Positions 31,374 through 61,970 of a stretch of DNA of 64,000 bases are shown here, in pieces (the stretch's first letter is position 1; every line of letters begins with the position of its first letter). The stretch is from Candidatus Woesearchaeota archaeon (GTDB taxonomy: Archaea > Nanobdellota > Nanobdellia > Woesearchaeales > ARS49). The stretch lies in contig JASMHM010000005.1 in assembly GCA_030750765.1 (NCBI GenBank), forward strand, positions 14,256 through 78,255, read 5' to 3'. Both the position numbers and the translations under genes were made by a program. The notes beneath the pieces are model-generated. The model had not been told where the DNA came from. It searched no databases and saw only the letters and a program-made list of their open reading frames with translations.

Positions 31374-31727
31374 ATGGCGATGGTGATGTACGACTGGATC
31401 TATGGTATCTCGCAAATCGCAGCAGTAGTCCTATCGTGTATTGCAGGACTCATAGCTCTTTACATCTTTAAGGATGCACGAAAACAAGAATTGTTAGGCG
31501 CGTGGAAGCCCATGTGCGCAGCTTTGGCCTTGTTTGCCGTCGAGGAGCTTTTGGGTTTGTTTAGAACATTCGACGTCTACGGCACTGCAGCCTTCAGCTG
31601 GGTGCCTGCGGGTATGGTAAGATTTTTGACCACTGCCGCAACGCACATCCTTCCTTTCTTCATACTCATGCTTCTTATCGCAGCTCTCATCAAGCAAATC
31701 AACATTAAGAGGGGGTGGGTGGCGTGA
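31374..31727 (+). CDS. small membrane protein, hypothetical
   Basis: Three to four predicted TM helices. Confidence 0.3.
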   Translation: MAMVMYDWIYGISQIAAVVLSCIAGLIALYIFKDARKQELLGAWKPMCAALALFAVEELLGLFRTFDVYGTAAFSWVPAGMVRFLTTAATHILPFFILMLLIAALIKQINIKRGWVA

Positions 31728-47882: not shown

Positions 47883-48300
47883 CATCCTCGTTGTAGGCTT
47901 GGTGGCTCTCTGTGCTCTGTGCTTGATATTGGGAGATGCTATCATCACGGGAGATATTAGTCTTCCAGCAGTCCACGTTACTGAAACGGTGTGTACAGAG
48001 GTAGATGGTGAGGAAGTGTGTGTTGAGGAGAAACGCATGGAGGGTATGAACCTTCCTTGGATGGAAGAACCCGCAGTGTGGTGGGGTAGTATTCTTCTCG
48101 GACTGGTTGTTTTCCTTGCATGCTTGTACGCGGTGGTGCACCTGCGAAGGACGCTGGCAGAAATGCGCCGAAGGCGAAAGCAACTAAAGGAGTATATTAG
48201 ACAGGCACGACAAGAGAACACCACAGATGAGCGGCTCACGTATTATTTGAAGAGTATGCGATACTCTGATCGCGATATCAAGAACGCTTTGAAGCATTAA
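47866..48300 (+). CDS. small two-TM membrane protein with a cytoplasmic tail resembling the giant-2 tail
   Basis: A putative GTG start overlaps the giant-2 stop. TM helices ILVVGLVALCALCLILG and ILLGLVVFLACLYAVVHL. Tail LKEYIRQARQ...YYLKSMRYSDRDIKNAL parallels the giant-2 tail LVDYITQCKR...QYVILGGYDPKLVNRAL. Confidence 0.35.
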   Translation: MKHTTSILVVGLVALCALCLILGDAIITGDISLPAVHVTETVCTEVDGEEVCVEEKRMEGMNLPWMEEPAVWWGSILLGLVVFLACLYAVVHLRRTLAEMRRRRKQLKEYIRQARQENTTDERLTYYLKSMRYSDRDIKNALKH

Positions 48301-48550
48301 TTTCGTTTGGTCTCATCAAGCAATGTATCATCTTTGACTTGCACTTCCATTCCTTGAGGAATTCCTTGACCTTCTTTTCCTGTTTTGGCCTTACGAGTAG
48401 AACGGTCTTTGCAAGTTGTACTATGCCGCATTCTTTTATGATGCCTGGTTGGCCTCCTCTTCCTTTGAGAGCATAGAAGAATCTGACTTTATCTTTGTAC
48501 ACCAAGTGTTTGGTGTCATATGTAACAATAATCATAGGGGTGAGCTTCAT
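48278..48550 (-). CDS. small conserved basic protein, paralog A (family of three; function unknown)
   Basis: MKLTPMIIVTYDTKHLVYKDKVRFFYALKGRGGQPGIIKEC...FLKEWKC. The ATG overlaps the stop of paralog B. The DNA is clearly a tandem duplicate of paralog B. Confidence 0.5.
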   Translation of the reverse strand: MKLTPMIIVTYDTKHLVYKDKVRFFYALKGRGGQPGIIKECGIVQLAKTVLLVRPKQEKKVKEFLKEWKCKSKMIHCLMRPNEINASKRS

Positions 48551-48894
48551 TTCTTGCCACCTCCAAACTTCTTTTTCAATTCGCGAAGTCTCTCAGCGTG
48601 GGGGTGTTCTTCCTTTGGCGCCGTTCGTATGGAGTCCTGGCCGCATTCTTCTGGTCGCATCAGGCAACGGAGCATTTTGGAATTGCACTCCCATTCCTTG
48701 AGGAAGGCTTGAACTCTCTTTTCATGTTCTGGTGCCACGAGCAACACGGTTTTGGCAAGCTGTGTGATGTTACATTCTTTGATTATGCCTGGCTGGCCCC
48801 CTCTACCTTTAAGCGCGTAGAAGAATCTGACTTTGTCTTTGTACTCTAAGTGCTTGGTGTCGTAGGTGAAGATGTTCATGGGGGCGCGCTTCAT
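48547..48894 (-). CDS. small conserved basic protein, paralog B, with a C-terminal tail (RLRELKKKFGGGKK) matching the giant-3 C-terminus
   Basis: MKRAPMNIFTYDTKHLEYKDKVRFFYALKGRGGQPGIIKEC...FLKEWEC plus the tail. Its ATG overlaps the giant-3 stop. The 25-bp junction sequence cttcatttcttgccacctccaaact is identical at 48545-48569 and 48889-48913. Confidence 0.5.
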   Translation of the reverse strand: MKRAPMNIFTYDTKHLEYKDKVRFFYALKGRGGQPGIIKECNITQLAKTVLLVAPEHEKRVQAFLKEWECNSKMLRCLMRPEECGQDSIRTAPKEEHPHAERLRELKKKFGGGKK

Positions 48895-51800
48895 TTCTTG
48901 CCACCTCCAAACTTTTTCTTCAAGTCACGTAAGCGCTTGGCGTGCTTGTATTCGTGCTCTTCCTGCTTTGGTTTTTCTTTTGGTTTATGCTTGATCGTTG
49001 GCTTTGGTTTCACCATTCGCTGGTAGTTCGTACCAAAGCTTCCTCGCAGTTTTTCTAGACTCTCGTTGTGGGTTCTCTGTCTCTTCTCAACGGGCGTGGG
49101 TTCTAGCGTGGTGCTTGGTGCGGGACGGACGTAGCTTGTCTTGGTCTTGTAGTTGGTGTCAAAGCTCTTCTTCAGGTTGTCCAGCATGTGGCTCTTGTGC
49201 TCATACGGCTTGCGCACGACCTTTGGTGCGGGCACAATAGGTGTTGGTTCTGGTTTTTTGTACTGTAGCCGCTCCTCAACTCTTCCACGGAATTGTTCCT
49301 TGAGCTTGTCAAAGCCATATCGTGGTTTGTGGACTGGTGCGCGAGGCTTCTTCTGGACAGGGAGGGCATGTGGTTGCGCCTTGGGTGTCTTTTCTAAGTA
49401 TCTTGCATAACTTGTACCGAATTGTTTCTTGAGTTGGTGGAGTGGTGTGGGTACTTTTTCAGTCTCTTTTGGCTTGGTCCAAGCGCTTGGGTGGCGTTTT
49501 CCAAGCATCTCTTGTAGTCGTTTCCCGCTGGTCTTAGGTTGCTGTTGTGGGGTGGGTTGAGGTCTAATGACGAACGGTTTGTACTTGACTTTTGGCATGT
49601 CCCACTTTGGTGGTGGGCTAGGTATCTGGGTTCTGGAGGGTAGTCGTATAGGTTTGAGTTTTGGTAGGCTAACTTTCAGGAAGACATCTTGCAACCTTCT
49701 CAAGGCAGGCACCATTACTGGTTTTCGTCTATGAGGCTTCCAGTCTCGTAATGGGTGCGGCACTTTGATGTGCGGTAGGCGGAGGTGTCTGAAGAATTCA
49801 ACAAGGACAGAGACAACAATGAGTGCGAGCAGAACATAGGCAGGGATGAGGGCTTGGTATAGGTAGTGGTGGAGTCCTATGGTTGCGCCTAGGAGGAGTG
49901 CGATGGCTACTTTTCCTAGGCGGAAGATGCGTGGAAGTGCTTTGCCGTACTTGTGCTTCTTGACCTCTCCCCACAAGATGAGGGCGATCATGGCGATGAG
50001 GAAGCCATAAATAACGATGGGTAGCAAGTTCTTGGCTCTTCTTTCAACGATCAAACAGTCACTTGGGCAGTTTACCTTGTCCTCTCCGTTTCCACACACA
50101 CCGTTTCCACACTTACAGTTGAGTGGGTCTGCTACGGTGTCTTCGTCGATTTCCTGGCCAACAACTGCGTATGTGTAGCCAGGTTGGCAGTTGTTAATGT
50201 TGAGCCGGATGTACTGATTGTATCCTAGTGTAACTTTTCCTTCTACTTGTTGTGCTACTAATCTTGCGATGACTTTTCTTGGTACGGAGTGGTCGATGAG
50301 TTGTCCGTGGTCTAGTTCCATCTCAAAGTAGTCTTCGCACTTGTTCTCCACAGGTTGACCTCCGACATTCTGGGCGCTGCTCACACTCACCACTCCGTCA
50401 TTGGGTTCCTTGAAGAACTCTCCAATTTGGTCACTCTCAACGGTGAAGATTGCGGTTTCGATGGTGAAGGGTCGGTTGCCTGCTAGTACGACGTATTCTT
50501 TGCCAGGCATTCTTGGTAGTTGGACTCCTTGGCTTAGGCTAGACACTACTGTGGGGCTTGCCGCGAGGAAGGGCACGATGTTTTTCTTTGCTCCGATCTT
50601 CTTTTGTACTTTCTTGTAGATGTCGATGGCGGGGCTTCCATCGTTTGGTGTTCCTACGAGGATGAGTTTTCTGATTTTTTCTTCAAACTCTTTGTTGGTC
50701 ATGTCCTTGAGTACTTGCTGAGTGATGAGTCCTCCCATACTGTGAGCGACGATGTCTACAGTGTCGAACTCTCGTAATGTACCTTCGATGAGTAGTCTTG
50801 TTTGTCTGGATATTTCTTTGAATTCTAGAGTGCTTGGGTACGCGATACTGTACACTTGTTGTGGTTGTTTGGTTAGTCTGAATTCTTCTATCATGGGTAG
50901 CCAGGTTGCTGGGCTGCTCATGAATCCGTGGATGAGGATGAGTGCTTGTCTGCTGCCGCCATCATATTCCTTACTCATCGTTACGTCGTCACAGCTGTCG
51001 CACCTGATTCCGTAGAATCCTAGTACGCTTGTGGTGTTTGTTTCAAAGCTTCCTTTGACTGTGGTGCCGTCGTAGTTGGTGACGATGGACTGCATGTCTC
51101 CGTTTTGTTTTCGGAATGCGGGGAATTCGCCTTCGAGGACGTTGTTGGTGCGCGGGTTCTTGACGCTTATGGTTACGGTTTGTGGTTTGCCACTGTTTTG
51201 GATGATTTCGATGGGGTCTACGAGTAGTGCGATGTGTTTGTCTACTTGTGGTAGGCTGAGTGCGTGTGGTTTCATGTTGAATTGGAAGGGTGTGGTGACG
51301 TCTTTGAATTCGATGGTGTATCCTTCTACCTGGACGCGTGGATTTTCAGGGGTGATGGTGGCTTGTTTTGTGAGCACTCTCTTTCTATCAATTTCTAATC
51401 CTTCTTTGGAGTACTCGCTCAACACGAGTTCGGAGTAGCTCACGCCACCGCATTCGAACTCTGTTGGTTTTTCTACGCCGACGAATTCGCAGCCTTCGTT
51501 GTTGCACTTTAGCGTTGTTATGTTTTCGTAGTTCTCAGAGACGCTTAGCGTTAGTACGACGTTGTCTCCGGCGCAGTCCATGGCGAATGGGTCTGCTAGC
51601 ACGCTGAAGCCTGTAGGTACTGGAGGGGTGCTGGCTTTCTTGATTTTTACTTGGCTTCCTGCTTCTCCTTGTGCGCATGCTACTTCTTCTGCTTCGATGT
51701 CTTCTTGGCTGATGAAGAGTTTTCCGATGTTGCTTCGTCTTTGGGAGGTTGCGGTGCTCACGCCTGCTGCTTTTGCTGCCGGTGCTGCTGCTGGCGCGGG

Positions 51801-54800
51801 GGCAGGCGCGGGTGCTGCGGGTGCATCTGGTGCTTCCTCGGCTGCAGCGGCTTTCTTGGCAGCATTGCTAGATCTGGAGGGAATTATTTTTCCCGTACCT
51901 GGATTGGTCTCTTCCCCGTAGCTGGTAAAGCCGGTGACGTTGAAGATGTGTCTCTGGTTGGAGAAGCTCACCTCTGTGCACGCCGAGCTTGGGCAGGTCT
52001 CAAAGACGCCATCATCTTCAGGATCTCTCGTCGCTCGAGGGGACAAGAATAACGTGTTGAAGAAGGTGACTTGTGATTCTACATTTAGTCCGGATTCTTG
52101 ACTGCTGTTTGCTAGGGCGTAATCTTCAGCAAAGACTAAGAAGCTAGAAAGGTTGGTGATGTTGTTTGCTATTCTTCCGAATTCTATGCCGCTCGTGTTC
52201 AGCTGTCCAAGTTTGAACGTGCTGTCTTTCATGATGTTGCTGTGGTTGTCGTGATATCGGTTGAGGTAGACAAACTTTGCTCCGGCACTGGTTCCGTTGA
52301 AGGTTGCGTTTCTTACAAAGATGAATTCTGCTTGTACTTGGGTGGATCCATTCCTGCCGTTGTAGGTTGCTCCGTCCATGATGTAGGTGCTGTTGATGAT
52401 TATGTTTCCACCTGCACCCCTTACTGTTGTTCCTGGGAGCATGGTGGCGTTGCTGAGGTTGAGATTTGCATCTCTAGGACTCCACTCCCAGTTTTGTATG
52501 CCGTACAGATGGTTGTGGGCGATGTCGTATCTTCCCCCAGTTCCAATCTCTCCCCCATTTGTCCCGTTGACAAGTAGGTGACTATCATTGATCAGGCTGG
52601 TGTTGTACTTGATCATGATCCTTCCTCCACCTCCACCTTCTCCAGTTCCTCCGCGTCCTCGCGCAAGGAAGTATCCTTGTCCGTCGATGACGTCTGTAAC
52701 TATGTTGATGCTTCCTCCGCTTCCTCCGCCTCCGTCTTGGTCACCAAAGCCGTCTACAGACAGGTTTCCAGAGATGTTCATGAGCCCTGCCTCGATGAAC
52801 ACTAGCCCTCCGCCTAGCGAACCGTTAACCTCTGGAGCTGCACCTCCGCCTCCGCCCCCACTTCCTAGCTCTACGGGATTGAAGGCGCTGCCGTACGTTG
52901 ATCCGTACGATTCTGTGCTTATTTCGGGGTTCTCTGTGGGTAGCCATGTGGGTGCTCCGGTTCCTCCGTGACTGCCGCCGCTTCCGTTGCCTTCTGTTGC
53001 GCCGGTGGGTCCTGCGCCCGGTCCTGTCTCTGCTCCAAACCCTTTGGTGGTGATGGTGCTTCCGACGTCCATGGTCATGTTGGTGGTGCTGATGTTGAGC
53101 CTGGTGACGTTAGCGATCTGTGACATGTCCATGAGTATGTGTTGGGCGGTGATGCTTAGGTTGGAGAGATTTTGGCTTGGGTTTGGGATGATGCTTGCGT
53201 TGTACAAGATCAGGTTGGTGACGTTCAGCACGAGACTGCTGTTGCTTTTTGTTACTGCCTGGGTGACGTTGATGGTGGCGTAATTCCAAATGCTGAGATC
53301 GGTGAGCACCCATCTCCAGCCGCCTCGGATTTGGACGCTGCTGGCGTTCAACTCAAAGAAGGCGATGGTGCCTATCCCTCCTCCACTCTTTCCAGACACG
53401 TCCGCATTCTCGATGGATAGGGTGCTGAAATTGGTTCTTACTGTGATCATGCCTCCTGAGCTGTTGTCGCCTCCTTTTACGTCAAAATTTCCATTGCCTG
53501 TGAGATTGTTTACGATTACGTTGATGGTGCCTCCGCTTCCTCCTGCTCCGGATTCTGTTCCTTGATAATTTTCGCCCTTAGCGCTGACATTTCCGCTAAT
53601 ATTCACTTGGTTGCCGCGGATGAACACCACGCCTCCTCCTGCTCCTGCTCCTCCTTGGTCCATTTTATCCCCGCCTCCACTTCCTGGTTGGGTAGGGTTG
53701 AAGGGGCGGTCATAAGGACTGCCTCCTGGCATGGTCCCGCCAGCAGTTTCGACAAATTCAGCACCCTTGCCGCCGTGACCTGCCCCTGAGCCTCCTTCGG
53801 TGGCTGATGTTCCTGCTCCAGGTCCTTTCTCTGCGATAAATCCTGCTTTATCTGCGGAAATAAACGAGTTTGCCGTGAGCGTGAAGTTTGGGCTGGTGAT
53901 GTTCATTACGCTTGTTCTGTTGATGGTGGAGTCCATGATGAGGCTGGTGCCTGCGCTTAGTGTGAAGTTTCCGATGAAGCTATCGTTGGTGTTGCCTTCG
54001 ATGGTGCTGTTTATTAGGTGGAAGACGCTGGCTGAGATGTTTAAGGTGTCATTTGCTTTTGTGCGGGCGTTGCTAACGTTCAACAAGGTGTAGTTCCAGC
54101 TGGCTTGTTTGACCCATCGCCATCCTTGCCTGATGTTGAGGCTGTTGTCGTCCAGGTCGAACATGGCGGCAGTGCCATGTTCTGCGCCACCATCTCCCTG
54201 CACCTCAAGATTTGTGATGGGTATCTGGGTGAAATTGTACTGTACAAGGATCATGCCGCCGCTGCTAGCGTTGGCTCCTTTTGCTGTGAGGAATCCGCCG
54301 CCGGTGAGGTTGCCTACCAAAATATTAATGGAGCCGCCTGCCCCTCCTGTGTTCTTAGTACCTTCTGGTGGGGGGAGTACTCCATCAACGCTGATGTTGC
54401 CCGACAGGTTAGAAAAGGAAGAACGGATGAACACCACGCCCCCTCCTCGCCCGCCTAGGAAACTTGCACTTTCGCTGGCGCCTCCGCTTCCTGCCTCTTC
54501 AGGGTTTAGAGGATTGTCATAGGGTTGATTGGGAACGCTCTCTCCTGGCATGCCCTTTCCACCGTGGCCGGCCCCGCTGCCTGCTAAGGTCGCTCCTGCT
54601 ACACCAAAGGCAGGTCCAGAATCTGAGGCAAAGCCGGCACCATCAGAAAGAATGACGGACCCTGCCGTGAGGGTGAAATTAGGACTGGTGATGTTGAACC
54701 TGCTCGTTCTGTTGATGACTGAGTTCATGATGAGGCTGGTGCCTGCGCTTAGTGTGAAGTTGCCGATGAAGGACACGTTGTTTTTTGGTTCGATGATGCT

Positions 54801-57800
54801 GTCTACAAGGTGGAAGACGCTGGCTGAGATGTTTAAGGTGTCATTTGCTTTTGTGCGGGCGTTGCTAACGTTCAACAAGGTGTAGTTCCAGCTGGCTTGT
54901 TTGACCCATCGCCATCCTTGTCGGATGTTTAGGCTGTTGTCATCCTCGTCATACATTGCTGTCGTGCCTTGTTCTCCGCCAGAGCTGCCGCTGGTGTTGA
55001 GCTTCTCTATAGAGATGGTGGTGGTGTTGTAACCAACGAAAATCATGCCACCGCCGCTTCTGGCTCCAGTACCTGTCGCGTCGAACGTTCCATTACCTAC
55101 AAGTTCGTTTACGAGGATGTTGATGCTGCCTCCGCTTCCCCCTCCTGCTAAGCCACTTCCCGCAACGCCTTGGACGCTGATGTTGCCGGAGAGGTTAGCG
55201 AAGTTGGATCGTATAATGACCACGCCTCCACCGAAACCTCCACGAGGTCCGCCGACTCCCTCAGAACCGCCGCCGCTGCCATGCTCAACAGGGTTTGTGG
55301 GGTCGTCATACACTTGGCCCTCGGGCATGGGAGGATCTGCTTCGGGGGGGCCGCCTAGTCCTCCGTGTCCTGCCCCGGCGCCGTCTCCGCTTCCCGAAGC
55401 CATGCCTGCTCCTGGGCCTAGGTCGTTAGAAAACCCTGTGCCGTCTGCGATGATGATCGAGCCAATAGTGAAGGTGAAGTTAGGGCTGGTGATGTTGAGT
55501 CTGCTTGTTTTATTGATGACAGCATCTACCAAGAATGAGGTTCCTGCGCCAATCGTAATGTTGCCGATGATGCTTTCATTGTTCTTGGGCTCGATGCTTG
55601 CGTTTGTCAAGTGGAAGACGCTGGCGGTGATGTTGAGTGAGTCGTTCGCTAACGTGATAGCATTTGTGACGTTCAACAAAGTGAAGTTCCAGGCCGCGAG
55701 CTTGACCCATCGCCAGCTCTGTCTGATGTTGAGGCTGTTGCTGTCCATGTCAAACATGGCTGAGGTACCGGGATTGCTTCCGCTGGCTCCGTCAACAAAC
55801 ATATTCTCAATGCTTGATGTGGTGGTGTTGTAACTAAGAAGGATCATACCTCCCCCGCCTCCTGAAGATCCAATACCTCGTGACAGGTACTTTCCGTCTC
55901 CGTGTAGAGTGTTCGCGAGTACGTTGATGGTGCCTCCGCTTCCTCCTCCATGGGGGCCGTCGCTAGCCCCTCCGTCTGTGCTGATGTTGCCTGACATGTT
56001 CAGCATGTCGGCTCTGATAAAGACTGCTCCGCCTCCTCTCTGTCCGCCCTTGCCTCCTCCACTTCCTAACTCGATAGGATTCAAGGGATCATCGTACACT
56101 TCGCTGCGAGGCAAGGGAGGAGTATCTTCGGGTACGGCTCTGCCTGCTCCACCGTGTCCTCCTGGACCGCCAAAGCTTCCACCATCTTGTCCTCCTCCAG
56201 GTCCGTCTGAGGAGTCGAATCCAGAGGCGTCCAGAATGATGAAGGATCCGCTGTCAATGCTGACGTTTACCGAGGTCACGTTGAATCTTGTGAAGTTTCC
56301 GATGGTCGAGCTTAGTATGAACATTTCGGTGGTGTTCACGGTCAGGTTCTTGTCCAAATCCAGGCTTACGTTTCCGGCAAGAAGCAAAGTGCTGTTTTGC
56401 ATGCGGAAGAACGCTCCAGAGATGTTGATACTGACGTTATACGTGGCCACTACATTTGTCAGGTTCATGGAAAACGCGTATACTGGTGTCTCGTCAAACG
56501 TCCACGACTGTCGCATGTTGAACACGCCGGTGCCTAGGTCCACAAATGCTAGCGAGCCAGGGAAGGCATTTCCTCTGCTGCTCACAGAAGAGCGAGAGGG
56601 GTCAAGAGTGCTGCTGTTTGCCCTAACCATGATGCGTCCGCCGCCTCCAGAAGCATTTTCATTACTTGAGGCTCCTTCTGCCTCGAGACGTCCGTTTCCT
56701 ACGAGAGTGTCTACGAGGATGTTGATGCTGCCTCCGCTGCCTCCGCCAGCTGCATCATTATCAGTAAAGACTGTTCCCCCTGACACGGTTATGTTTCCGC
56801 TCATGTTGAGCCTGCTTCCTCTTATGAACACTGCGCCTCCTCCTCGGGCAGCTCCAGAGTTACCGTCATCGCCCCTTCCGCCCTGGCTTCCAGGGTTTAC
56901 AGGGTTGCGTGCGCTGTCATAGCTCAGACCTGCTAGTGTGGGAGGTGTTCCGGGAGAGTCTAACCCTTTGCCTCCGTGTCCTGCGCCAGAACCGTAGGGG
57001 TGACCTCCGTCGTCGTCCGCCCCTGCTCCTGGACCGTCGTAGGCAGTGTCGCTTGCGTTAATGACTGAGCTCTCATCAATGGTTGTGTTTGTACTGGTGA
57101 TGTTTACTATGAGAAGGCTTGTTAGTATGCTGTTTTTGATCTCCATGTTGGTCGCGTTCATGGTGAGGTTGGTCGTGGTGTTTTCTGGGGCACCCTCAAT
57201 GGATGCGTTTACCATGCTGAACATCCCAACGCTAAAGTTGAGTGTGGCGTTCATGGTGATGTTAACGCCAATAATGCGAATGCTGCCCATGTTTTGCAAG
57301 GCTGCAGAGGGGAATCTGAAATCCTCAATGAGATAGACTGTGTCGTCGTCCACGTCCAAAATGATTAGCGAACCTGGATCTGCGTCGGCCTCGCCTGGTG
57401 AAACGTCGTAATTGTCGCGGGTGAGACTGGAGTGGTTGTACTCAATGCGCATTCTTCCTCCGCCGCCTGCACCTCCGCCTCCGCCTCCGCCTCTGGCAGT
57501 GATGTTTCCTGTACCATTGATGTGGTTGGCGATGATGTGGATGGTGCCGCCTCCGCCTCCGCCGCCTATTCCTGAGCCAAAGCTCTGGATGCCTGAGATA
57601 CCGTCTGCACTTATCGTACCGTTAACGATGAGCACGTCTGCCTCGAGCTTGAGTATGCCTCCTCCTGCTCCTCCAATGCCGTCATCCGTAGTGCCTGCAT
57701 GCCCTCCTCCACTTCCTGCCTGGAATGGGTTGACAGGATCTCCATACGCTACTCCTCCGTCGGAGGGAGGGTCGTTGTTATTCGCTCCGCCTCCACCGCC

Positions 57801-60152
57801 GTGGCTTCCTCCAGGGCCATGCTTTTCATCATCGCTAGAGCGGTCCACTTGGCTGATGCCTTCAAGAACTTGGTAGCCGGTACCATTCAACAGGATGTCT
57901 CCTTCTACAGTGATGTTATCTGCCTTGATGAGTATGCTTTCGTTGCCTATGCTGGTGGCGTTGATGATCATGATGGCTCCTGCACTAATGTTGATGTTGC
58001 TACAGGTTTTGTTGCTCGTTACGTACTCAGTACCGGTGATGACCCAGTTGCCTGTTGAGTCTGGACAGCTCGCAAACTTGGTGACGTTAAACTCGATGTA
58101 GACGCTGTGGTTCTTGTTGTTGGAGGTGTCGTTAGCTAGTATTGTGAGGTTGTACTCTCCCGAGGTGTCTGTGGCTAGCGTAACAAACGTGTTGTTGAAC
58201 TCGGTGCCAGAACGATTGAACAATTGTATCAGTGTGTTGCTGCCGTTGGGGATGGTGATGTTGGCAAACACAGTGTCTGTTATGTTGTCATCTGTAACAT
58301 TAACATCGATGGTGGTGGTGTTGCCTCTGGCGAACTGTTTGGGCGTGATGTTGAGCTTGGTTACTGCGGGTACTTTGATGTCTGAAGGGAGGTTGATCTC
58401 GTACTGGATGATCAGCACAGGATAGTTGGTAATGTTGTCATCATTCTGCATCACGATCTCTGCCGTGGAGTTGGTCTCGTTATTTTCCGGTGTTCTTATG
58501 CCTAGCGTGAACACGTCGCTCCCTGTTAGCGCGCTCTCGATGTCGGCTGAGGCATTAAGGCCTAGTTGCTGGGTGGTCTTCCAGTAGCAGCCAGAAGACA
58601 TAAGACAGTTGTCCTTCTCTTCATGGCCTGCCACGTTACACCCGTCCGCGTGGTCCAAGCACACGGAGCCATTCCATTGACAGCCGGTGTTCGTACCGCA
58701 AGAGCCTTCATCTCCCTGCTCTGCACAATTATCTCGGAAGCCTCGGCACAGGGTTCTGCTGCTGGTGAAGTTGGTGTGGTCCTCAAAGTAGACGTTACTG
58801 GTGCCATTAGTGCCGTTGTAGAGGTCGTTGTTGCCTTGCGAGTTGTCGGTGTAGTCTGCCGCGGGCTTGGAGATTCCGGCAATCGTGATGTTGTCCTCGC
58901 CAGTGCTCTTTGTTGCTGTAAGCGTTAGATTAACCAATGTGATGTTGGCGTTGTCAGGAATTATGGTGGTGTTGAAGTCTAGGAAGATGCGATAGCCTGC
59001 ATGCTTGGTGTCGCCCCAAGAGCACGTAAATTGGGCAGAGCAATCTCCTTCGCCGGAGGTTATATTGCTGCACGGTTCAGCTGTGCCCTCGCAGCTGTCT
59101 CCGTCCCAGGTGCATCCTCGCTGGGTGTCGCAGGAAGGCTCATCTGCGATCTCGCCGCAGGTCATAACTTCACCTGAGCAACCTGGATGGGTTTTGTTTC
59201 CAAGGGAAGCGTTTGAGGATGTGGTATCTCGGGTGTGTGCTGTCACGTTCGTGCTGGTCTCGTTTCTAAGGGTGTGCCCGTCTAGCGTGAGATTGCCTCC
59301 GTCTAGGGAGATCGCGGTTATGGAGACCACTTGTATGAGGAGGTCTCCTTGTTGTTGGACTGGCGAGACAGAGAAGCCCACTGCCTCTCCTGCAGACCTG
59401 AACAAGGTGAAGTGGTCAACGGTAAAACTTACGTCTCCGCTGTCGTACTGGATGTTGGTACAGCTAGGGCTTGTCGTGTCATCACACGTTCCCCAAGTTG
59501 TTCCATCATCGCTGTATTCGATCTTGCTGCCGATGGCGCTGTTGATGGTGAGTGTTGCTGTTTTGTTGAGCTGGACACACTTGGCAGTGTCTAGTCCGAT
59601 AAGGTTATCCTCCACAACAAGACATTCGTGGATGTTGGTGTAGTTTTGCTTGCCACCAAAGTCGATCTTTCCAAGATCGCCGCTAACGCTGCCGTCTTCT
59701 TGTATTTGCATTCCTTTGGGTATGAGTAAGAAATTGTAGTTGAGGATTGCAGCATCATCCTCTTCGTCCGCTGCGTCCTCTAGCGTGGTTGTGTCTTCAA
59801 TAAGACTGGGAAGGTCGGTAAGGTCGGGTAGTGCTTCAACAACTGGCCCTTGGAACTCGTGACTAAGCACCTGTTGAGAGATATTGGAGCCCACGAGTAA
59901 GGATACTGTGAGCTCCACCTCTCTAACATCTGCGTGGTTTTTGGTTAGTGTTAGCAATTCTCCATCAACTTCTGTCGTCACATTCTCGTGTGTCTGGACG
60001 AGGAAAGAGTCAGCCGGGCCTAGTCGCTCCGTGAGGTTTAGCGTGGTTGTTGGTAGATCAAGACCGAATAGTCCGGTGATCGTGCCTCCCCAAAGAGCTA
60101 AACTAAGCCCAGCAATGACGATGAATACGGCGAGCAGCTTCCTTACTTCCAT
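48891..60152 (-). CDS. giant surface protein 3 (3753 aa): signal peptide, NxT/S-sequon-rich beta-solenoid-like region, Cys clusters, ~6 tandem ~265-aa Gly-rich modules, Ala/Pro linker, lipase-type alpha/beta-hydrolase domain, two TM segments, basic repeat cytoplasmic tail
   Basis: N-terminal signal MEVRKLLAVFIVIAGLSLALWGG. Repeated modules (...NISASVFHL...GGAGGSINILV...NSLNIRQGWRWVKQASWNYTLLNV...) at ~52100-57400. AAKKAAAAEEAPDAPAAPAPAPAP linker. Hydrolase core ~50600-50960 (ALILIHGF oxyanion region, nucleophile elbow AHSMGG, LVGTPNDGSP). TM helices at ~49824-49901 and ~49959-50066. Tail with repeated L(K/R)KxFGTxY units ending KRLRDLKKKFGGGKK. Stop is TGA. Confidence 0.7.
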   Translation of the reverse strand: MEVRKLLAVFIVIAGLSLALWGGTITGLFGLDLPTTTLNLTERLGPADSFLVQTHENVTTEVDGELLTLTKNHADVREVELTVSLLVGSNISQQVLSHEFQGPVVEALPDLTDLPSLIEDTTTLEDAADEEDDAAILNYNFLLIPKGMQIQEDGSVSGDLGKIDFGGKQNYTNIHECLVVEDNLIGLDTAKCVQLNKTATLTINSAIGSKIEYSDDGTTWGTCDDTTSPSCTNIQYDSGDVSFTVDHFTLFRSAGEAVGFSVSPVQQQGDLLIQVVSITAISLDGGNLTLDGHTLRNETSTNVTAHTRDTTSSNASLGNKTHPGCSGEVMTCGEIADEPSCDTQRGCTWDGDSCEGTAEPCSNITSGEGDCSAQFTCSWGDTKHAGYRIFLDFNTTIIPDNANITLVNLTLTATKSTGEDNITIAGISKPAADYTDNSQGNNDLYNGTNGTSNVYFEDHTNFTSSRTLCRGFRDNCAEQGDEGSCGTNTGCQWNGSVCLDHADGCNVAGHEEKDNCLMSSGCYWKTTQQLGLNASADIESALTGSDVFTLGIRTPENNETNSTAEIVMQNDDNITNYPVLIIQYEINLPSDIKVPAVTKLNITPKQFARGNTTTIDVNVTDDNITDTVFANITIPNGSNTLIQLFNRSGTEFNNTFVTLATDTSGEYNLTILANDTSNNKNHSVYIEFNVTKFASCPDSTGNWVITGTEYVTSNKTCSNINISAGAIMIINATSIGNESILIKADNITVEGDILLNGTGYQVLEGISQVDRSSDDEKHGPGGSHGGGGGANNNDPPSDGGVAYGDPVNPFQAGSGGGHAGTTDDGIGGAGGGILKLEADVLIVNGTISADGISGIQSFGSGIGGGGGGGTIHIIANHINGTGNITARGGGGGGGAGGGGRMRIEYNHSSLTRDNYDVSPGEADADPGSLIILDVDDDTVYLIEDFRFPSAALQNMGSIRIIGVNITMNATLNFSVGMFSMVNASIEGAPENTTTNLTMNATNMEIKNSILTSLLIVNITSTNTTIDESSVINASDTAYDGPGAGADDDGGHPYGSGAGHGGKGLDSPGTPPTLAGLSYDSARNPVNPGSQGGRGDDGNSGAARGGGAVFIRGSRLNMSGNITVSGGTVFTDNDAAGGGSGGSINILVDTLVGNGRLEAEGASSNENASGGGGRIMVRANSSTLDPSRSSVSSRGNAFPGSLAFVDLGTGVFNMRQSWTFDETPVYAFSMNLTNVVATYNVSINISGAFFRMQNSTLLLAGNVSLDLDKNLTVNTTEMFILSSTIGNFTRFNVTSVNVSIDSGSFIILDASGFDSSDGPGGGQDGGSFGGPGGHGGAGRAVPEDTPPLPRSEVYDDPLNPIELGSGGGKGGQRGGGAVFIRADMLNMSGNISTDGGASDGPHGGGSGGTINVLANTLHGDGKYLSRGIGSSGGGGGMILLSYNTTTSSIENMFVDGASGSNPGTSAMFDMDSNSLNIRQSWRWVKLAAWNFTLLNVTNAITLANDSLNITASVFHLTNASIEPKNNESIIGNITIGAGTSFLVDAVINKTSRLNITSPNFTFTIGSIIIADGTGFSNDLGPGAGMASGSGDGAGAGHGGLGGPPEADPPMPEGQVYDDPTNPVEHGSGGGSEGVGGPRGGFGGGVVIIRSNFANLSGNISVQGVAGSGLAGGGSGGSINILVNELVGNGTFDATGTGARSGGGMIFVGYNTTTISIEKLNTSGSSGGEQGTTAMYDEDDNSLNIRQGWRWVKQASWNYTLLNVSNARTKANDTLNISASVFHLVDSIIEPKNNVSFIGNFTLSAGTSLIMNSVINRTSRFNITSPNFTLTAGSVILSDGAGFASDSGPAFGVAGATLAGSGAGHGGKGMPGESVPNQPYDNPLNPEEAGSGGASESASFLGGRGGGVVFIRSSFSNLSGNISVDGVLPPPEGTKNTGGAGGSINILVGNLTGGGFLTAKGANASSGGMILVQYNFTQIPITNLEVQGDGGAEHGTAAMFDLDDNSLNIRQGWRWVKQASWNYTLLNVSNARTKANDTLNISASVFHLINSTIEGNTNDSFIGNFTLSAGTSLIMDSTINRTSVMNITSPNFTLTANSFISADKAGFIAEKGPGAGTSATEGGSGAGHGGKGAEFVETAGGTMPGGSPYDRPFNPTQPGSGGGDKMDQGGAGAGGGVVFIRGNQVNISGNVSAKGENYQGTESGAGGSGGTINVIVNNLTGNGNFDVKGGDNSSGGMITVRTNFSTLSIENADVSGKSGGGIGTIAFFELNASSVQIRGGWRWVLTDLSIWNYATINVTQAVTKSNSSLVLNVTNLILYNASIIPNPSQNLSNLSITAQHILMDMSQIANVTRLNISTTNMTMDVGSTITTKGFGAETGPGAGPTGATEGNGSGGSHGGTGAPTWLPTENPEISTESYGSTYGSAFNPVELGSGGGGGGAAPEVNGSLGGGLVFIEAGLMNISGNLSVDGFGDQDGGGGSGGSINIVTDVIDGQGYFLARGRGGTGEGGGGGRIMIKYNTSLINDSHLLVNGTNGGEIGTGGRYDIAHNHLYGIQNWEWSPRDANLNLSNATMLPGTTVRGAGGNIIINSTYIMDGATYNGRNGSTQVQAEFIFVRNATFNGTSAGAKFVYLNRYHDNHSNIMKDSTFKLGQLNTSGIEFGRIANNITNLSSFLVFAEDYALANSSQESGLNVESQVTFFNTLFLSPRATRDPEDDGVFETCPSSACTEVSFSNQRHIFNVTGFTSYGEETNPGTGKIIPSRSSNAAKKAAAAEEAPDAPAAPAPAPAPAAAPAAKAAGVSTATSQRRSNIGKLFISQEDIEAEEVACAQGEAGSQVKIKKASTPPVPTGFSVLADPFAMDCAGDNVVLTLSVSENYENITTLKCNNEGCEFVGVEKPTEFECGGVSYSELVLSEYSKEGLEIDRKRVLTKQATITPENPRVQVEGYTIEFKDVTTPFQFNMKPHALSLPQVDKHIALLVDPIEIIQNSGKPQTVTISVKNPRTNNVLEGEFPAFRKQNGDMQSIVTNYDGTTVKGSFETNTTSVLGFYGIRCDSCDDVTMSKEYDGGSRQALILIHGFMSSPATWLPMIEEFRLTKQPQQVYSIAYPSTLEFKEISRQTRLLIEGTLREFDTVDIVAHSMGGLITQQVLKDMTNKEFEEKIRKLILVGTPNDGSPAIDIYKKVQKKIGAKKNIVPFLAASPTVVSSLSQGVQLPRMPGKEYVVLAGNRPFTIETAIFTVESDQIGEFFKEPNDGVVSVSSAQNVGGQPVENKCEDYFEMELDHGQLIDHSVPRKVIARLVAQQVEGKVTLGYNQYIRLNINNCQPGYTYAVVGQEIDEDTVADPLNCKCGNGVCGNGEDKVNCPSDCLIVERRAKNLLPIVIYGFLIAMIALILWGEVKKHKYGKALPRIFRLGKVAIALLLGATIGLHHYLYQALIPAYVLLALIVVSVLVEFFRHLRLPHIKVPHPLRDWKPHRRKPVMVPALRRLQDVFLKVSLPKLKPIRLPSRTQIPSPPPKWDMPKVKYKPFVIRPQPTPQQQPKTSGKRLQEMLGKRHPSAWTKPKETEKVPTPLHQLKKQFGTSYARYLEKTPKAQPHALPVQKKPRAPVHKPRYGFDKLKEQFRGRVEERLQYKKPEPTPIVPAPKVVRKPYEHKSHMLDNLKKSFDTNYKTKTSYVRPAPSTTLEPTPVEKRQRTHNESLEKLRGSFGTNYQRMVKPKPTIKHKPKEKPKQEEHEYKHAKRLRDLKKKFGGGKK

Positions 60153-60394
60153 ACTGCCCTCCTATCGTAGGAACATTTCCATTCCTTGAGAAATGCGTCT
60201 ACGGTGTTAGCGTGTTGTTTGGGTACTAAGAAGGCGGTGCGACCTAACTGGTCTATTTTGCAGTCTTTGATGATGCCACTTTTCCCATCTCTTCCTTTGA
60301 TGGCGTAGTAAAATCTAACCTTGTCAGAGTATTTTAGATGGGTGGTAGAATAGGTAAAAAGTGCAAATTCAGTGTAACTACTACCAGCAACCAC
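60143..60394 (-). CDS. small conserved basic protein, paralog C (first gene of the giant-3 operon)
   Basis: ...FALFTYSTTHLKYSDKVRFYYAIKGRDGKSGIIKDC...FLKEWKC is homologous to paralogs A and B. Putative GTG start at 60394-60392, 26 nt downstream of the TATA. Overlaps the giant-3 start by 10 nt. Confidence 0.45.
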   Translation of the reverse strand: MVAGSSYTEFALFTYSTTHLKYSDKVRFYYAIKGRDGKSGIIKDCKIDQLGRTAFLVPKQHANTVDAFLKEWKCSYDRRAVWK

Positions 60395-60419
60395 GCTGTT
60401 AAATAATTTAACAGTTTGG

Positions 60420-60427
60420 TATATAAA
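60420..60427 (-). promoter_or_regulatory. TATA box (tttatata on the minus strand) for the paralog-C/giant-3/B/A operon
   Basis: Forward tatataaa. The GTG lies 26 nt downstream on the minus strand, the same architecture as giant 1 and the tRNAs. Confidence 0.5.
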
Positions 60428-60764: not shown

Positions 60765-60833
60765 GACGGTGATAGAGATGTTTTGTATTTAAATGATACC
60801 CATCTTAATAAGCGGAACCACGCTTTCACTCTC

Positions 60834-61970
60834 ATGGGATGGCGTGATTGGTTCCGTCGAGAGACAGAAATTCCTGCTGCAGAACTAGAGGTGTGGCTCA
60901 AGGAAAAGGCTACAGAAAGACGCGAAGAGCAGCAAGAGGAAGCAAAAGCGTTCGCTAACAAACAAGAAGAGAGCCGAAAAAGTATTCTCACTGGACTAGA
61001 AGCCTTAGAAGCTGCAGAGTTGGGTAATGAAAAGATCCCTGTCAAGCACAAACATTTCATGGAAGGCAATCGTGCCACCTTTATGAAAGTGATCAATCAA
61101 GGCCTAGAGAACAATCGCTTGGATGATTTAGGAACAAAACTCCAAAGAAGCATGACCATACTGAACGAATTTTTCCAGAACGAAGTGATGGCGATCTTAG
61201 AATCTGTACGCAATTACGAAAACGCAAGGAAAGAACAGCTCGAACTCGAAGCAGAGAACGAATTTGAGGTTGTTCTCAATCGTTTGTCTGCGTACCAAAG
61301 AGGAAAGAAAGAAAAGTCGCATGTAGAAAACCAACAAGCGGTCCTTACCAAGGAAGTGGAAAGTTTACAACAACAATACGCTGACAGAGATGAGCGAGCG
61401 AGCAACCGATTGCTCCAACCTGACTTTCTTGGTGCCCAAGAAAACGCTGACAAGTTGGAAACGGCAAGCAAGCGCATGCGCGGTGAGATAGCAGACCTGT
61501 TCTCCCCTTTACGAGATGTACTAAAAAAATACGGTCACGCTCGCTTCCACCACAAGCAGTTGATGGACCAATACCTCGACGACGCGAGCGTTGCTCTGAG
61601 CACAGACATAGATCTAGAAGTGGTGGATGCTTTGGCATACGCAAAGAGCATGATAGCAAAGGAAGAGATCACGTTCAAGGATGATGGGAAAAAACAACGC
61701 GCACTGGATGCCATCGATTTTATTTCCAAAGAAGAGCTCACCGTGATGCTTCGCGAGTATGCTTTGTTGAGCAAGCAGGCAAAGGATGCAGATCGTTCGA
61801 GCAAAGAGCATGATGCCATCAAGATTTCAAAAAAACTGTCTGAAGAAGCGAAACAATTGCAAGCAAAACTGTCAGACAAAGAAAAAGCATTGCGCCGCGT
61901 GGAGGACATCAACGTGGAAATTGAGTATCCTCATGAATTGTTAGAAAAACTGAAAGTTAAAGTGGTTTGA
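60834..61970 (+). CDS. hypothetical coiled-coil protein
   Basis: Long K/E/Q-rich helical ORF. First in-frame ATG at 60834, ~40 nt downstream of TATA-like tatttaaa (60788-60793). Confidence 0.35.
   Translation: MGWRDWFRRETEIPAAELEVWLKEKATERREEQQEEAKAFANKQEESRKSILTGLEALEAAELGNEKIPVKHKHFMEGNRATFMKVINQGLENNRLDDLGTKLQRSMTILNEFFQNEVMAILESVRNYENARKEQLELEAENEFEVVLNRLSAYQRGKKEKSHVENQQAVLTKEVESLQQQYADRDERASNRLLQPDFLGAQENADKLETASKRMRGEIADLFSPLRDVLKKYGHARFHHKQLMDQYLDDASVALSTDIDLEVVDALAYAKSMIAKEEITFKDDGKKQRALDAIDFISKEELTVMLREYALLSKQAKDADRSSKEHDAIKISKKLSEEAKQLQAKLSDKEKALRRVEDINVEIEYPHELLEKLKVKVV

Follow-up and report, generated by a model that had tools for sequence, protein, structure and literature searches.

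In this study, we examined a 64,000-nucleotide (nt) stretch of DNA from a marine Candidatus Woesearchaeota archaeon (assembly GCA_030750765.1, contig JASMHM010000005.1, positions 14,256 to 78,255 of the forward strand), referred to as a whole as the window, and in it a predicted operon in which three paralogous genes for small basic proteins (A, B and C) surround a giant gene (giant gene 3). According to the list of open reading frames (ORFs), the four genes are read from the minus strand in the 5' to 3' order C, giant gene 3, B, A (Table 1). An earlier reading of the sequence alone had placed three paralogues in one operon around giant gene 3, and this was borne out by tblastn and by a six-frame hidden Markov model (HMM) search, which found the small domain three times in the window and no more (E ~1e-34 for each of A, B and C; next best match 0.48). 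The same reading had chained the genes by start/stop overlaps; overlaps are indeed present at all junctions and measure 4 nt (ATGA) between giant gene 3 and B and between B and A, whereas the overlap of C with giant gene 3 is 10 nt rather than 4.

The ORF of C covers 60143-60394, or extends to 60463 with a longer upstream extent. Translation from the GTG at 60394 would give a protein of 83 amino acids (aa), a start supported by the TATA box and by an orthologue of 83 aa (P0284). The orthologue of C at the related locus L088 has 83 aa, is 86% identical and lies in the same synteny (PGK, a 430-aa gene, C, giant). The TATA-to-GTG geometry of C (-33..-26) is also seen at giant gene 1 (32085) and at the gene for the RNase P subunit Rpr2 (60764), where the GTG start again stands exactly 26-33 nt after a TTTAWATA box; given this box at -33..-26 and the GTG start, the mRNAs of these first cistrons (C, giant gene 1 and the Rpr2 gene) are predicted to be leaderless. 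Internal cistrons (giant gene 2, giant gene 3, B and A) carry ribosome-binding sites of the GGAGG type. The sequence features, namely the TATA box, the leaderless first cistron and the overlapping cistrons led by Shine-Dalgarno (SD) sequences, thus define C, giant gene 3, B and A as one predicted operon. At its 3' end, A converges with an ORF on the plus strand (47716-48300), and the orthologue of A has the same placement after the giant gene in L001-L004. An Rfam search over the operon gave no matches.

Table 1. Features of the predicted operon, in window coordinates (pI, isoelectric point; BRE, B recognition element)
Feature	Position	Strand	Description
Paralogue C	60143-60394	-	83 aa, pI 9.6; first cistron, canonical 'leader' member
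Giant gene 3	48891-60152	-	3753 aa
Paralogue B	48547-48894	-	115 aa, pI 9.6; chimera
Paralogue A	48278-48550	-	90 aa, pI 10.1; last cistron
Second palindrome I2, TTTCGACG-AGAAA-CGTCGAAA	60430-60450	.	immediately upstream of BRE/TATA
TATA box TTTATATA	60420-60427	-	-33..-26 relative to the GTG of C
Proximal palindrome TGTTAAATAATTTAACA (TGTTAA-ATAAT-TTAACA)	60397-60413	.	between TATA and start, perfect
Shine-Dalgarno GGAGG	60158-60162	-	within final codons of C; 5-nt spacing to the giant gene 3 ATG (60152)
Five tail repeats, L..L[KR]..F	48909-49442	-	42-43 aa spacing
Tail motif cores, L..L[KR]..F	49419-49442, 49290-49313, 49161-49184, 49035-49058, 48909-48932	-	
27-nt block AAGTTTGGAGGTGGCAAGAAATGAAGC, giant gene 3/B junction	48888-48914	-	SD GGAGGTG, spacer, ATGA stop/start
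27-nt block, second copy, B/A junction	48544-48570	-	SD/spacer/ATGA
344-nt duplication, nominal proximal copy	48646-48989	-	end of giant tail and first 83 codons of B
344-nt duplication, nominal distal copy	48302-48645	-	tail of B and first 83 codons of A
Domain make-up of B	core residues 1-83; copied giant tail repeat residues 84-115, nt 48550-48645	-	chimera

The small-protein family and its predicted fold

The family of A, B and C is, by profile searches, unannotated and restricted to Woesearchaeota/Nanoarchaeia. A word-based search retrieved only five close relatives; an HMMER scan with a six-sequence profile gave 308 cluster representatives at E<=1e-3 among 1.84 billion proteins, and a 75-sequence profile gave 417 proteins, all of them 'hypothetical' and none with a recorded Pfam domain. 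Named members came from Woesearchaeota or Nanoarchaeia (DPANN archaea), and no relatives were detected on viral contigs. A, B, C and 75 relatives had no consistent Pfam match, and A, B and C matched no NCBIfam, PADLOC or PHROG family, in agreement with the sequence-only reading, which could not assign the core to a known family. The Pfam and NCBIfam models of Cas2/VapD matched neither A, B and C nor 75 members even at E<=1, and sequence searches of the PDB with the family profile and with a relative fused to a minimal nucleotidyltransferase (MNT) returned nothing useful, including no Cas2 sequence at E<=10. Weak profile matches to DUF7205, 3-PAP and PII were judged to be noise, and an identity as an IS200-type HUH transposase was rejected, the protein being too small and having no HUH motif. 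Literature searches covering DPANN giant proteins and MNT fusions yielded no description of this small-protein family.

Family members are about 85 aa long and strongly basic (median pI 9.6, with 96% above 8.5 and 2% below pI 7). The best 154 relatives included 95 stand-alone proteins (~85-100 aa), 21 tandem two-domain proteins and 34 with an N-terminal extension. The extensions scanned correspond to an MntA-like MNT, once preceded by a NucS-type nuclease domain; the MNT fusions (such as P0073, P0131 and P0132) showed sub-threshold matches to the MntA antitoxin model, and at least one MNT-fused relative sits in a housekeeping context, as has been described for DPANN MNT fusions. In nine relatives (P0009, P0011, P0013, P0014, P0021, P0024, P0026, P0030 and P0037), a degenerate nucleotidyltransferase-like segment (..DIILLDN..., ending ..GISL..) separates two family domains or precedes one. 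These sequences suggest a continuum from active MNT-fused proteins to stand-alone domains.

Y26, G30, R31 and G36 are invariant in the family, and F24, F64 and W68 nearly so; the conserved residues center on helix alpha1 and the following loop (DKVRFYYALKGRxGxxG). AlphaFold2 modeled A with a predicted local distance difference test (pLDDT) score of 92.5, as b-a-b-b-a-b plus a C-terminal helix, so that a ferredoxin-like fold is confidently predicted for the family. Foldseek placed Cas2 chains at the top of its matches, which were weak (E 0.04), the fold being a generic one. Pfam and NCBIfam scans of the family found no helix-turn-helix (HTH), winged HTH, ribbon-helix-helix, AbrB or zinc ribbon domains.

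Operon context and the promoter palindrome

Related loci were collected by a scan of one genome per species, which gave 147 relatives; the best 80 loci, all from DPANN, were examined. The gene following the small gene on the same strand encodes at least 1000 aa in 53% of cases, compared with 2.8% of background genes at the same loci (odds ratio 40, p 1.7e-26), and it has an N-terminal transmembrane (TM) helix in 90% compared with 32% of the background (p 5.6e-19). The sequence-only reading had proposed a check on whether homologues elsewhere adjoin giant genes, and they overwhelmingly do. A second pass over the 80 loci found the N-terminal TM helix in the downstream gene in 66 of 80, a downstream gene of >=600 aa or cut by the contig end in 56 of 80, and a large ORF ending just upstream of the small gene in 7 of 80. 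In 47 of 66 loci the last codons of the small gene combine ATGA stop/start coupling with an SD sequence (GAGGTG or GGAGG). By gene order and sequence, therefore, the family gene is normally the first of its predicted operon, translationally coupled to a large putative surface protein with an N-terminal membrane helix. C occupies this usual position upstream of a giant; A and B, which belong to a sub-branch found behind a giant tail (in the window, L001, L086 and L087), are the exception.

The C promoter holds two palindromes. The proximal one is the single match to TGTTAA-N5-TTAACA in the window (0 mismatches), and it extends to 15-nt arms (60390-60420) that cover the start codon. Over 150 nt, this promoter is 91% identical to those of L088/L089 despite saturated synonymous sites. 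Across the related loci, the same element, which we call the operator, was counted with <=2 mismatches within 150 nt upstream of a gene. It was found in 66 of 77 family promoters, 38 of which had at least two sites, and in 3 of 149 other promoters of the same loci (Fisher p 2.6e-41); 119 sites were observed compared with 3.0 expected from shuffles, and site density in family promoters was 44 times that in the rest of the loci. Most further sites (<=1 mismatch) lie 150-610 nt upstream of the same small gene, and up to ten sites (<=2 mismatches) are found within 700 nt upstream of one gene. The tandem two-domain relatives have the same operator in their promoters, and operator and small protein are both nearly invariant across the family. 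As far as sequence comparison can detect, this cis element travels with the small gene and with nothing else.

The position of the operator is also constrained. In 34 of 63 loci the proximal site is preceded by a TATA-like hexamer whose first base lies 15-16 nt upstream, and this fixed offset implies that the proximal site covers the predicted transcription start. In many loci, a second operator site lies just upstream of BRE/TATA. At the C promoter, the second palindrome, I2, stands in place of this usual upstream copy. Its 8-nt arms are 100% complementary and arranged as 8+5+8, compared with 6+5+6 in the operator, from which it differs in sequence while sharing the 5-nt spacer; it is the only perfect match in the window and has one mismatch in the sister lineage L088/L089. 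I2 might be a site of the divergent A/B-type paralogues.

The tail of giant gene 3 and the origin of B

The protein of giant gene 3 begins with an N-terminal signal anchor (nt 60078-60134, ...GGTITGLFG), continues with a large, repeat-rich ectodomain, and ends with three TM helices (nt 49794-50027) and a basic cytoplasmic tail (pI 10.5 over the last 275 aa). It is 81% identical to the orthologous giants in L001 and L088. The sequence-only reading had described about five repeats on the cytoplasmic tail, and exactly five L..L[KR]..F motifs do follow the three TM helices; such motifs also occur in the orthologous tails of L001, L086 and L087. An amphipathic basic helix of a similar kind ends many family-linked giants, and many giants are without the tail motif.

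Several further properties of these giant proteins were observed. N-terminal anchors of the surface proteins after family members (L006-L084) very often end in I-T-G-[FLYQ], as in giant gene 3 (...LALWGGTITGLFG), and this end may be a lineage-specific processing or sorting site. Within the ectodomain, 52600-57600 on the minus strand holds seven internal repeats of ~800 nt (~267 aa) rich in Gly runs and N-x-S/T sequons, and residues 3071-3181 match weakly to alpha/beta-hydrolases (PGAP1/LCAT/DUF7379-like). The 11.3-kb sense strand has 0 runs of T>=5 and 14 runs of A>=5, and T makes up only 17% of it; AT skew tracks the coding strand window-wide. This pattern would fit a tendency of long archaeal genes to avoid oligo-T termination signals. 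Another kind of cytoplasmic C-terminal tail, built of ~40-aa helical modules (..YI....G....I...L...G.....I..A), is found at the C-terminus of giant gene 2 (~47700-47882) and on the 194-aa ORF convergent with A, and recurs on giant proteins in L038, L041, L047, L048, L061, L079 and L082.

The protein of giant gene 3 and B share their C-terminal end. Comparison of the last 15 residues of the giant (KRLRDLKKKFGGGKK) with B (ERLRELKKKFGGGKK) shows 13 of 15 identical, which upholds the earlier observation that B ends with a copy of the giant tail. The DNA at the two junctions had been reported as identical over 25 bp (48545-48569 and 48889-48913); the identity is real, and its length is 27 nt (0 of 100 shuffles matched). 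These blocks are embedded in a longer direct repeat with a spacing of 344 nt, in which 48302-48601 and 48646-48945 are 77% identical. In a three-way alignment with the single-copy sister locus, codons 1-83 of B match A, the last ~24 codons of B match the last repeat of the giant with a two-codon indel, and the ten codons between are unalignable. The alignment indicates that the duplicated unit started inside the giant tail, ~33 codons before the giant stop, and ended just before the stop of A, 7 codons upstream of it. The copied tail is in frame with the core of B because 344 = 2 mod 3 offsets the frame shift of the ATGA overlap. The earlier proposal that a module of tail, stop/ATG overlap and small paralogue had been tandemly duplicated is thereby sustained.

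This event is old. The cores of A and B have a ratio of non-synonymous to synonymous divergence (dN/dS) of 0.056 with dS ~2.2 (saturated). The sister marine Woesearchaeota lineage L001-L004 has giant followed by A with the same ATGA junction and without B, and a neighbor-joining tree places B outside (A, L001-A); the A/B distances are equally compatible with a duplication near the lineage split followed by acceleration of B. In the last 16 tail codons, the giant and B copies differ by 6 synonymous and 4 non-synonymous changes, and the tail helix of B is retained under amino-acid-level constraint. AlphaFold2 modeled B with a core at pLDDT >90, a disordered linker and a low-confidence tail helix (residues 99-110), and the tail made no contact with the core. 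At L087 (1-549), a giant tail (...ELLKLKKKFGGTTK*) is followed by two ATGA-coupled small paralogues without a captured piece of tail, which indicates that doubling of the small gene after the tail happened more than once.

The shared end KKKFGGGKK had been suggested as a sorting or processing signal, and it proved not to be one signal. The nucleotides under the tail end are AAG TTT GGA GGT GGC AAG AAA TGA, and GGG-KK is encoded by GGAGGTGGCAAGAAATGA, that is, by the next cistron's ribosome-binding site, spacer and start; both the B and the A junction read GGAGGTG-N8-ATG, with a full SD sequence 8 nt before the ATG. 'GGGKK' is thus conserved because the 27 identical nt are the ribosome-binding site, spacer and start codon. 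A related tail ending in ...LKKRFEVRR carries GAGGTG in place of the GGG-KK coding; the membrane protein encoded upstream in L086 has a tail with the end LMRLKKRFEVRR (...ELMRLKKRFEVRR*), where E-V is encoded by GAGGTG and followed by ATGA, and the L087 tail ends in LKLKKKFGGTTK before its own ATGA. On these sequences, L..LKK.F is a genuine conserved peptide, the last tail repeat, and the ribosome-binding site determines which residues follow. We hold with high confidence both that B arose by an old 344-nt tandem duplication and that the SD sequence accounts for GGGKK. The case illustrates that what looks like a 'conserved C-terminal peptide' may in reality be a ribosome-binding site lying within the preceding ORF.

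Elsewhere in the window, giant genes 1 and 2 had no small-family partner by tblastn or the six-frame HMM search. Upstream of giant gene 1, a three-TM protein of ~117 aa is encoded (MAMVMYDWIYGISQIAAV...; 31374-31727, plus strand). Its homologue in L034 (5389-5990) follows a small family gene, and it may be another recurrent companion of these loci. A 395-aa ORF with a TTG start (60783-61970, plus strand) matched the Pfam model of the P22 coat protein with a borderline score (E 2e-5, just at the cut-off); the ORF is Glu/Lys-rich by eye, and the match is probably spurious.

Possible roles of the small proteins and comparison with known systems

From these findings we infer that the small protein binds DNA as a dimer and autoregulates the operons of giant surface proteins, a reading to which we give about an even chance. 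First, the exclusive co-occurrence of cis element and gene points to the small protein as the trans factor, as do its uniform positive charge and the basic helix and Gly/Arg loop that form its most conserved surface. Second, it would bind the palindrome as a dimer because the half-sites are 11 bp apart and because the tandem-domain relatives, which keep the operator, resemble single-chain dimers. Third, the antitoxin-like and nuclease domains to which other relatives are fused are commonly found with DNA-binding modules; antitoxins typically carry a DNA-binding autoregulatory domain. DNA would be contacted through the basic helix alpha1 and the Gly-Arg loop, the most conserved element of the family. 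The operon would be autoregulated, most likely by repression, since the TATA box and the start flank the proximal site, and the upstream sites could instead, or also, serve activation.

A and B would then be extra copies of the regulator made only after the ribosome has completed the 11-kb giant ORF, providing a completion-dependent feedback, and the L..LKK.F helix of B may, speculatively, place B wherever the cytoplasmic tail of the giant is bound. Put together, the family may form a new archaeal class of sequence-specific ferredoxin-fold DNA-binding proteins that dimerize in the manner of E2, read TGTTAA-N5-TTAACA with alpha1 as the recognition helix and autoregulate giant surface-protein operons across Woesearchaeota/Nanoarchaeia, with A and B, in the present lineage, reporting completed synthesis of the 3753-aa protein and B tethered by the tail motif, so that the status of the surface protein would be linked to transcription. 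We offer this fuller proposal tentatively, as possible rather than probable.

Several points weigh against such a regulator. The support for DNA binding is indirect (charge, basic helix and tandem relatives), and no DNA-binding domain of E2 or EBNA1, which in mechanism would be the nearest precedent, appeared among the 50-60 top structural matches listed from the PDB and viral libraries. A locus with an MNT-fused relative had no significant operator. Gene calls at the related loci were crude, being the longest ORFs under greedy selection. An unlinked regulator might occupy the operator, in which case the small protein would have some other role, and if several operons in a genome share the operator, their regulators would cross-talk. 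Furthermore, the roles proposed for A, B and the tail of B are conjecture.

If the small protein does bind the site, it would represent a new family of DNA-binding domains for archaeal transcription. Host-cell contact by DPANN archaea is believed to rely on huge surface proteins, whose genes are very costly, and, if the autoregulator reading is true, the small gene together with TGTTAA-N5-TTAACA would provide a sequence tag for host-interaction loci in metagenomes. A family-specific small protein and promoter palindrome across dozens of uncultured species constitute a concrete regulatory module.

Among other explanations, the sequence-only reading had raised the possibility of a cytoplasmic adaptor or chaperone of the giant, acting on the L..LKK.F tail repeats or, in a wider form, on the signal anchor, with B as a decoy or self-associating adaptor. 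Tight translational coupling is typical of physical partners, the tail motif has been preserved in four lineages, each with an A-type gene immediately behind the tail, the RLR[DE]LKKKF of B has been kept despite the 6 synonymous changes in 16 codons, and helices of a similar kind end many family-linked giants. However, the four lineages are close relatives and hence not independent evidence; most members lie upstream of the giant, and many giants lack the motif. Both presumed partners are strongly basic (median pI 9.6 for the small proteins, 10.5 for the tail), AlphaFold2 gives no confident contact between the tail and the core of B, and the promoter palindrome and the nucleotidyltransferase and nuclease fusions are left unexplained. 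The idea gained no positive support; the operator points instead to a DNA-binding regulator, and we consider an adaptor or chaperone role unlikely.

The small protein might also be a cis-acting RNA-binding factor (RRM-like/ferredoxin-like) that serves the stability, processivity or targeting of the long mRNA or its translating ribosome. Its placement would fit, because a ribosome would make the small protein before reinitiating on the giant ORF, and so would its basic charge, a b-a-b-b-a-b fold common to many RNA-binding domains, the nucleotidyltransferase and nuclease fusions and the conserved coupling to very long ORFs. Against this, the first cistron is predicted to be leaderless and would offer no 5' untranslated region to bind, the operon contains no Rfam element, and non-coding conservation is confined to one DNA element that precedes the predicted transcription start. 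In addition, giant gene 3 already avoids terminator-like oligo-T runs, and giant genes 1 and 2 do without such a partner. This role has, in our view, a small chance of being correct.

It is quite improbable that the small proteins are nucleases or toxins of the Cas2/VapD kind, with the MNT-fused relatives as single-chain toxin-antitoxin pairs. The sub-threshold MntA antitoxin matches of those relatives would agree with it, but the structural E-values are weak (0.04) for a generic fold, no profile of any Cas2 or defense family is matched, and alignment column 12, the place of the catalytic, metal-binding Asp that closes beta1 in Cas2, holds Ser in 59% of members and Asp in only 9%; moreover, synteny with surface-protein genes is stable species-wide, unlike that of toxin-antitoxin or CRISPR loci, and the family is absent from viral contigs. 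A polymorphic-toxin-like array (giant exoprotein, immunity genes and an 'orphan' module of C-terminal tip and immunity gene) is superficially resembled by the tandem duplication of the giant gene end and the next small gene, but is very improbable, as the C-terminal part of the giant consists of three TM helices and a basic cytoplasmic tail of low complexity, with no toxin domain, the small proteins show strong conservation (dN/dS 0.06; family invariants) rather than hypervariability, and the usual family position is upstream of the giant. Finally, an assembly artefact or recent trivial duplication, to which the 27 identical nt at two junctions might point and which the sequence-only reading had allowed for as a similarity limited to 25 bp, has a negligible chance and can be dismissed, because the repeat is only 77% identical over 300 nt, its synonymous divergence is saturated, its ORFs are intact and show purifying selection, and B was recovered identically from at least 5 independent protein records of metagenome-assembled genomes and from 12 contigs.

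Turning to known systems, small accessory genes coupled to giant exoprotein genes are familiar from bacteria, as in hlyC-hlyA and secretion chaperone-effector pairs. There, too, a small cytoplasmic protein is encoded beside, and co-expressed with, a very large secreted protein; those proteins are acyltransferases or acidic chaperones of known fold, whereas the archaeal family is basic, has no enzyme signature and possesses its own promoter palindrome. With dedicated secretion chaperones (type III secretion class I, TorD-like) the family shares adjacency to the partner gene; those chaperones are acidic, however, and the family is basic (median pI 9.6).

Cas2, VapD and the middle domain of PaaX are the best, though weak, structural neighbors, equal in size and topology. 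They differ in that no profile similarity exists, the catalytic Asp is unconserved and the small family is linked to surface-protein genes; no cas1 was noted among the ORFs read, no dedicated search for cas genes or CRISPR arrays having been run. The resemblance to MNT fusions and to type VII MntA/HepT toxin-antitoxin systems is that about a fifth of the family relatives carry an MntA-like nucleotidyltransferase N-terminal to the small domain. In contrast to HEPN, the small domain is alpha/beta and not helical and has no Rx4-6H motif, and A, B and C are without an MNT domain; in the fused relatives, Pfam gave no HEPN match, and no R-x(4-6)-H was apparent among the conserved columns. A DPANN cluster mentioned as 'MNT fused to HEPN' (PMC6393860) may overlap with the MNT-fused relatives of the family.

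The model of A has the same order of secondary structure as the DNA-binding domains of papillomavirus E2 and EBNA1. These are dimeric b-a-b-b-a-b domains of ~85 aa that form an eight-stranded barrel, use alpha1 as the recognition helix and bind a short palindrome with a non-contacted spacer. In the small family, alpha1 and the loop are likewise the most conserved and basic part, and the putative target, TGTTAA-N5-TTAACA, would be of the same kind.

In gene arrangement, the family resembles archaeal operon-specific repressors (such as MDR1, LrpA, Phr and TrmB-type regulators), which bind between the TATA box and the transcription start. Here as there, a palindrome occupies a fixed position over the core promoter of the operon that encodes the regulator, in the small family a putative one, often with a second site upstream of BRE/TATA; as expected of an autoregulated operon, the palindrome is specific to the family's own promoters and lies over their core elements (66/77 compared with 3/149). 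Those repressors use helix-turn-helix, winged-helix or ribbon-helix-helix domains, whereas the small family is without these, being predicted as ferredoxin-like proteins of ~85 aa with putative DNA binding. The logic of an operon-encoded autoregulator, of translational coupling and of a chimeric gene born from tandem duplication is familiar; new here are the protein family, its probable ferredoxin-fold recognition of DNA and its dedication to giant surface-protein operons in DPANN.

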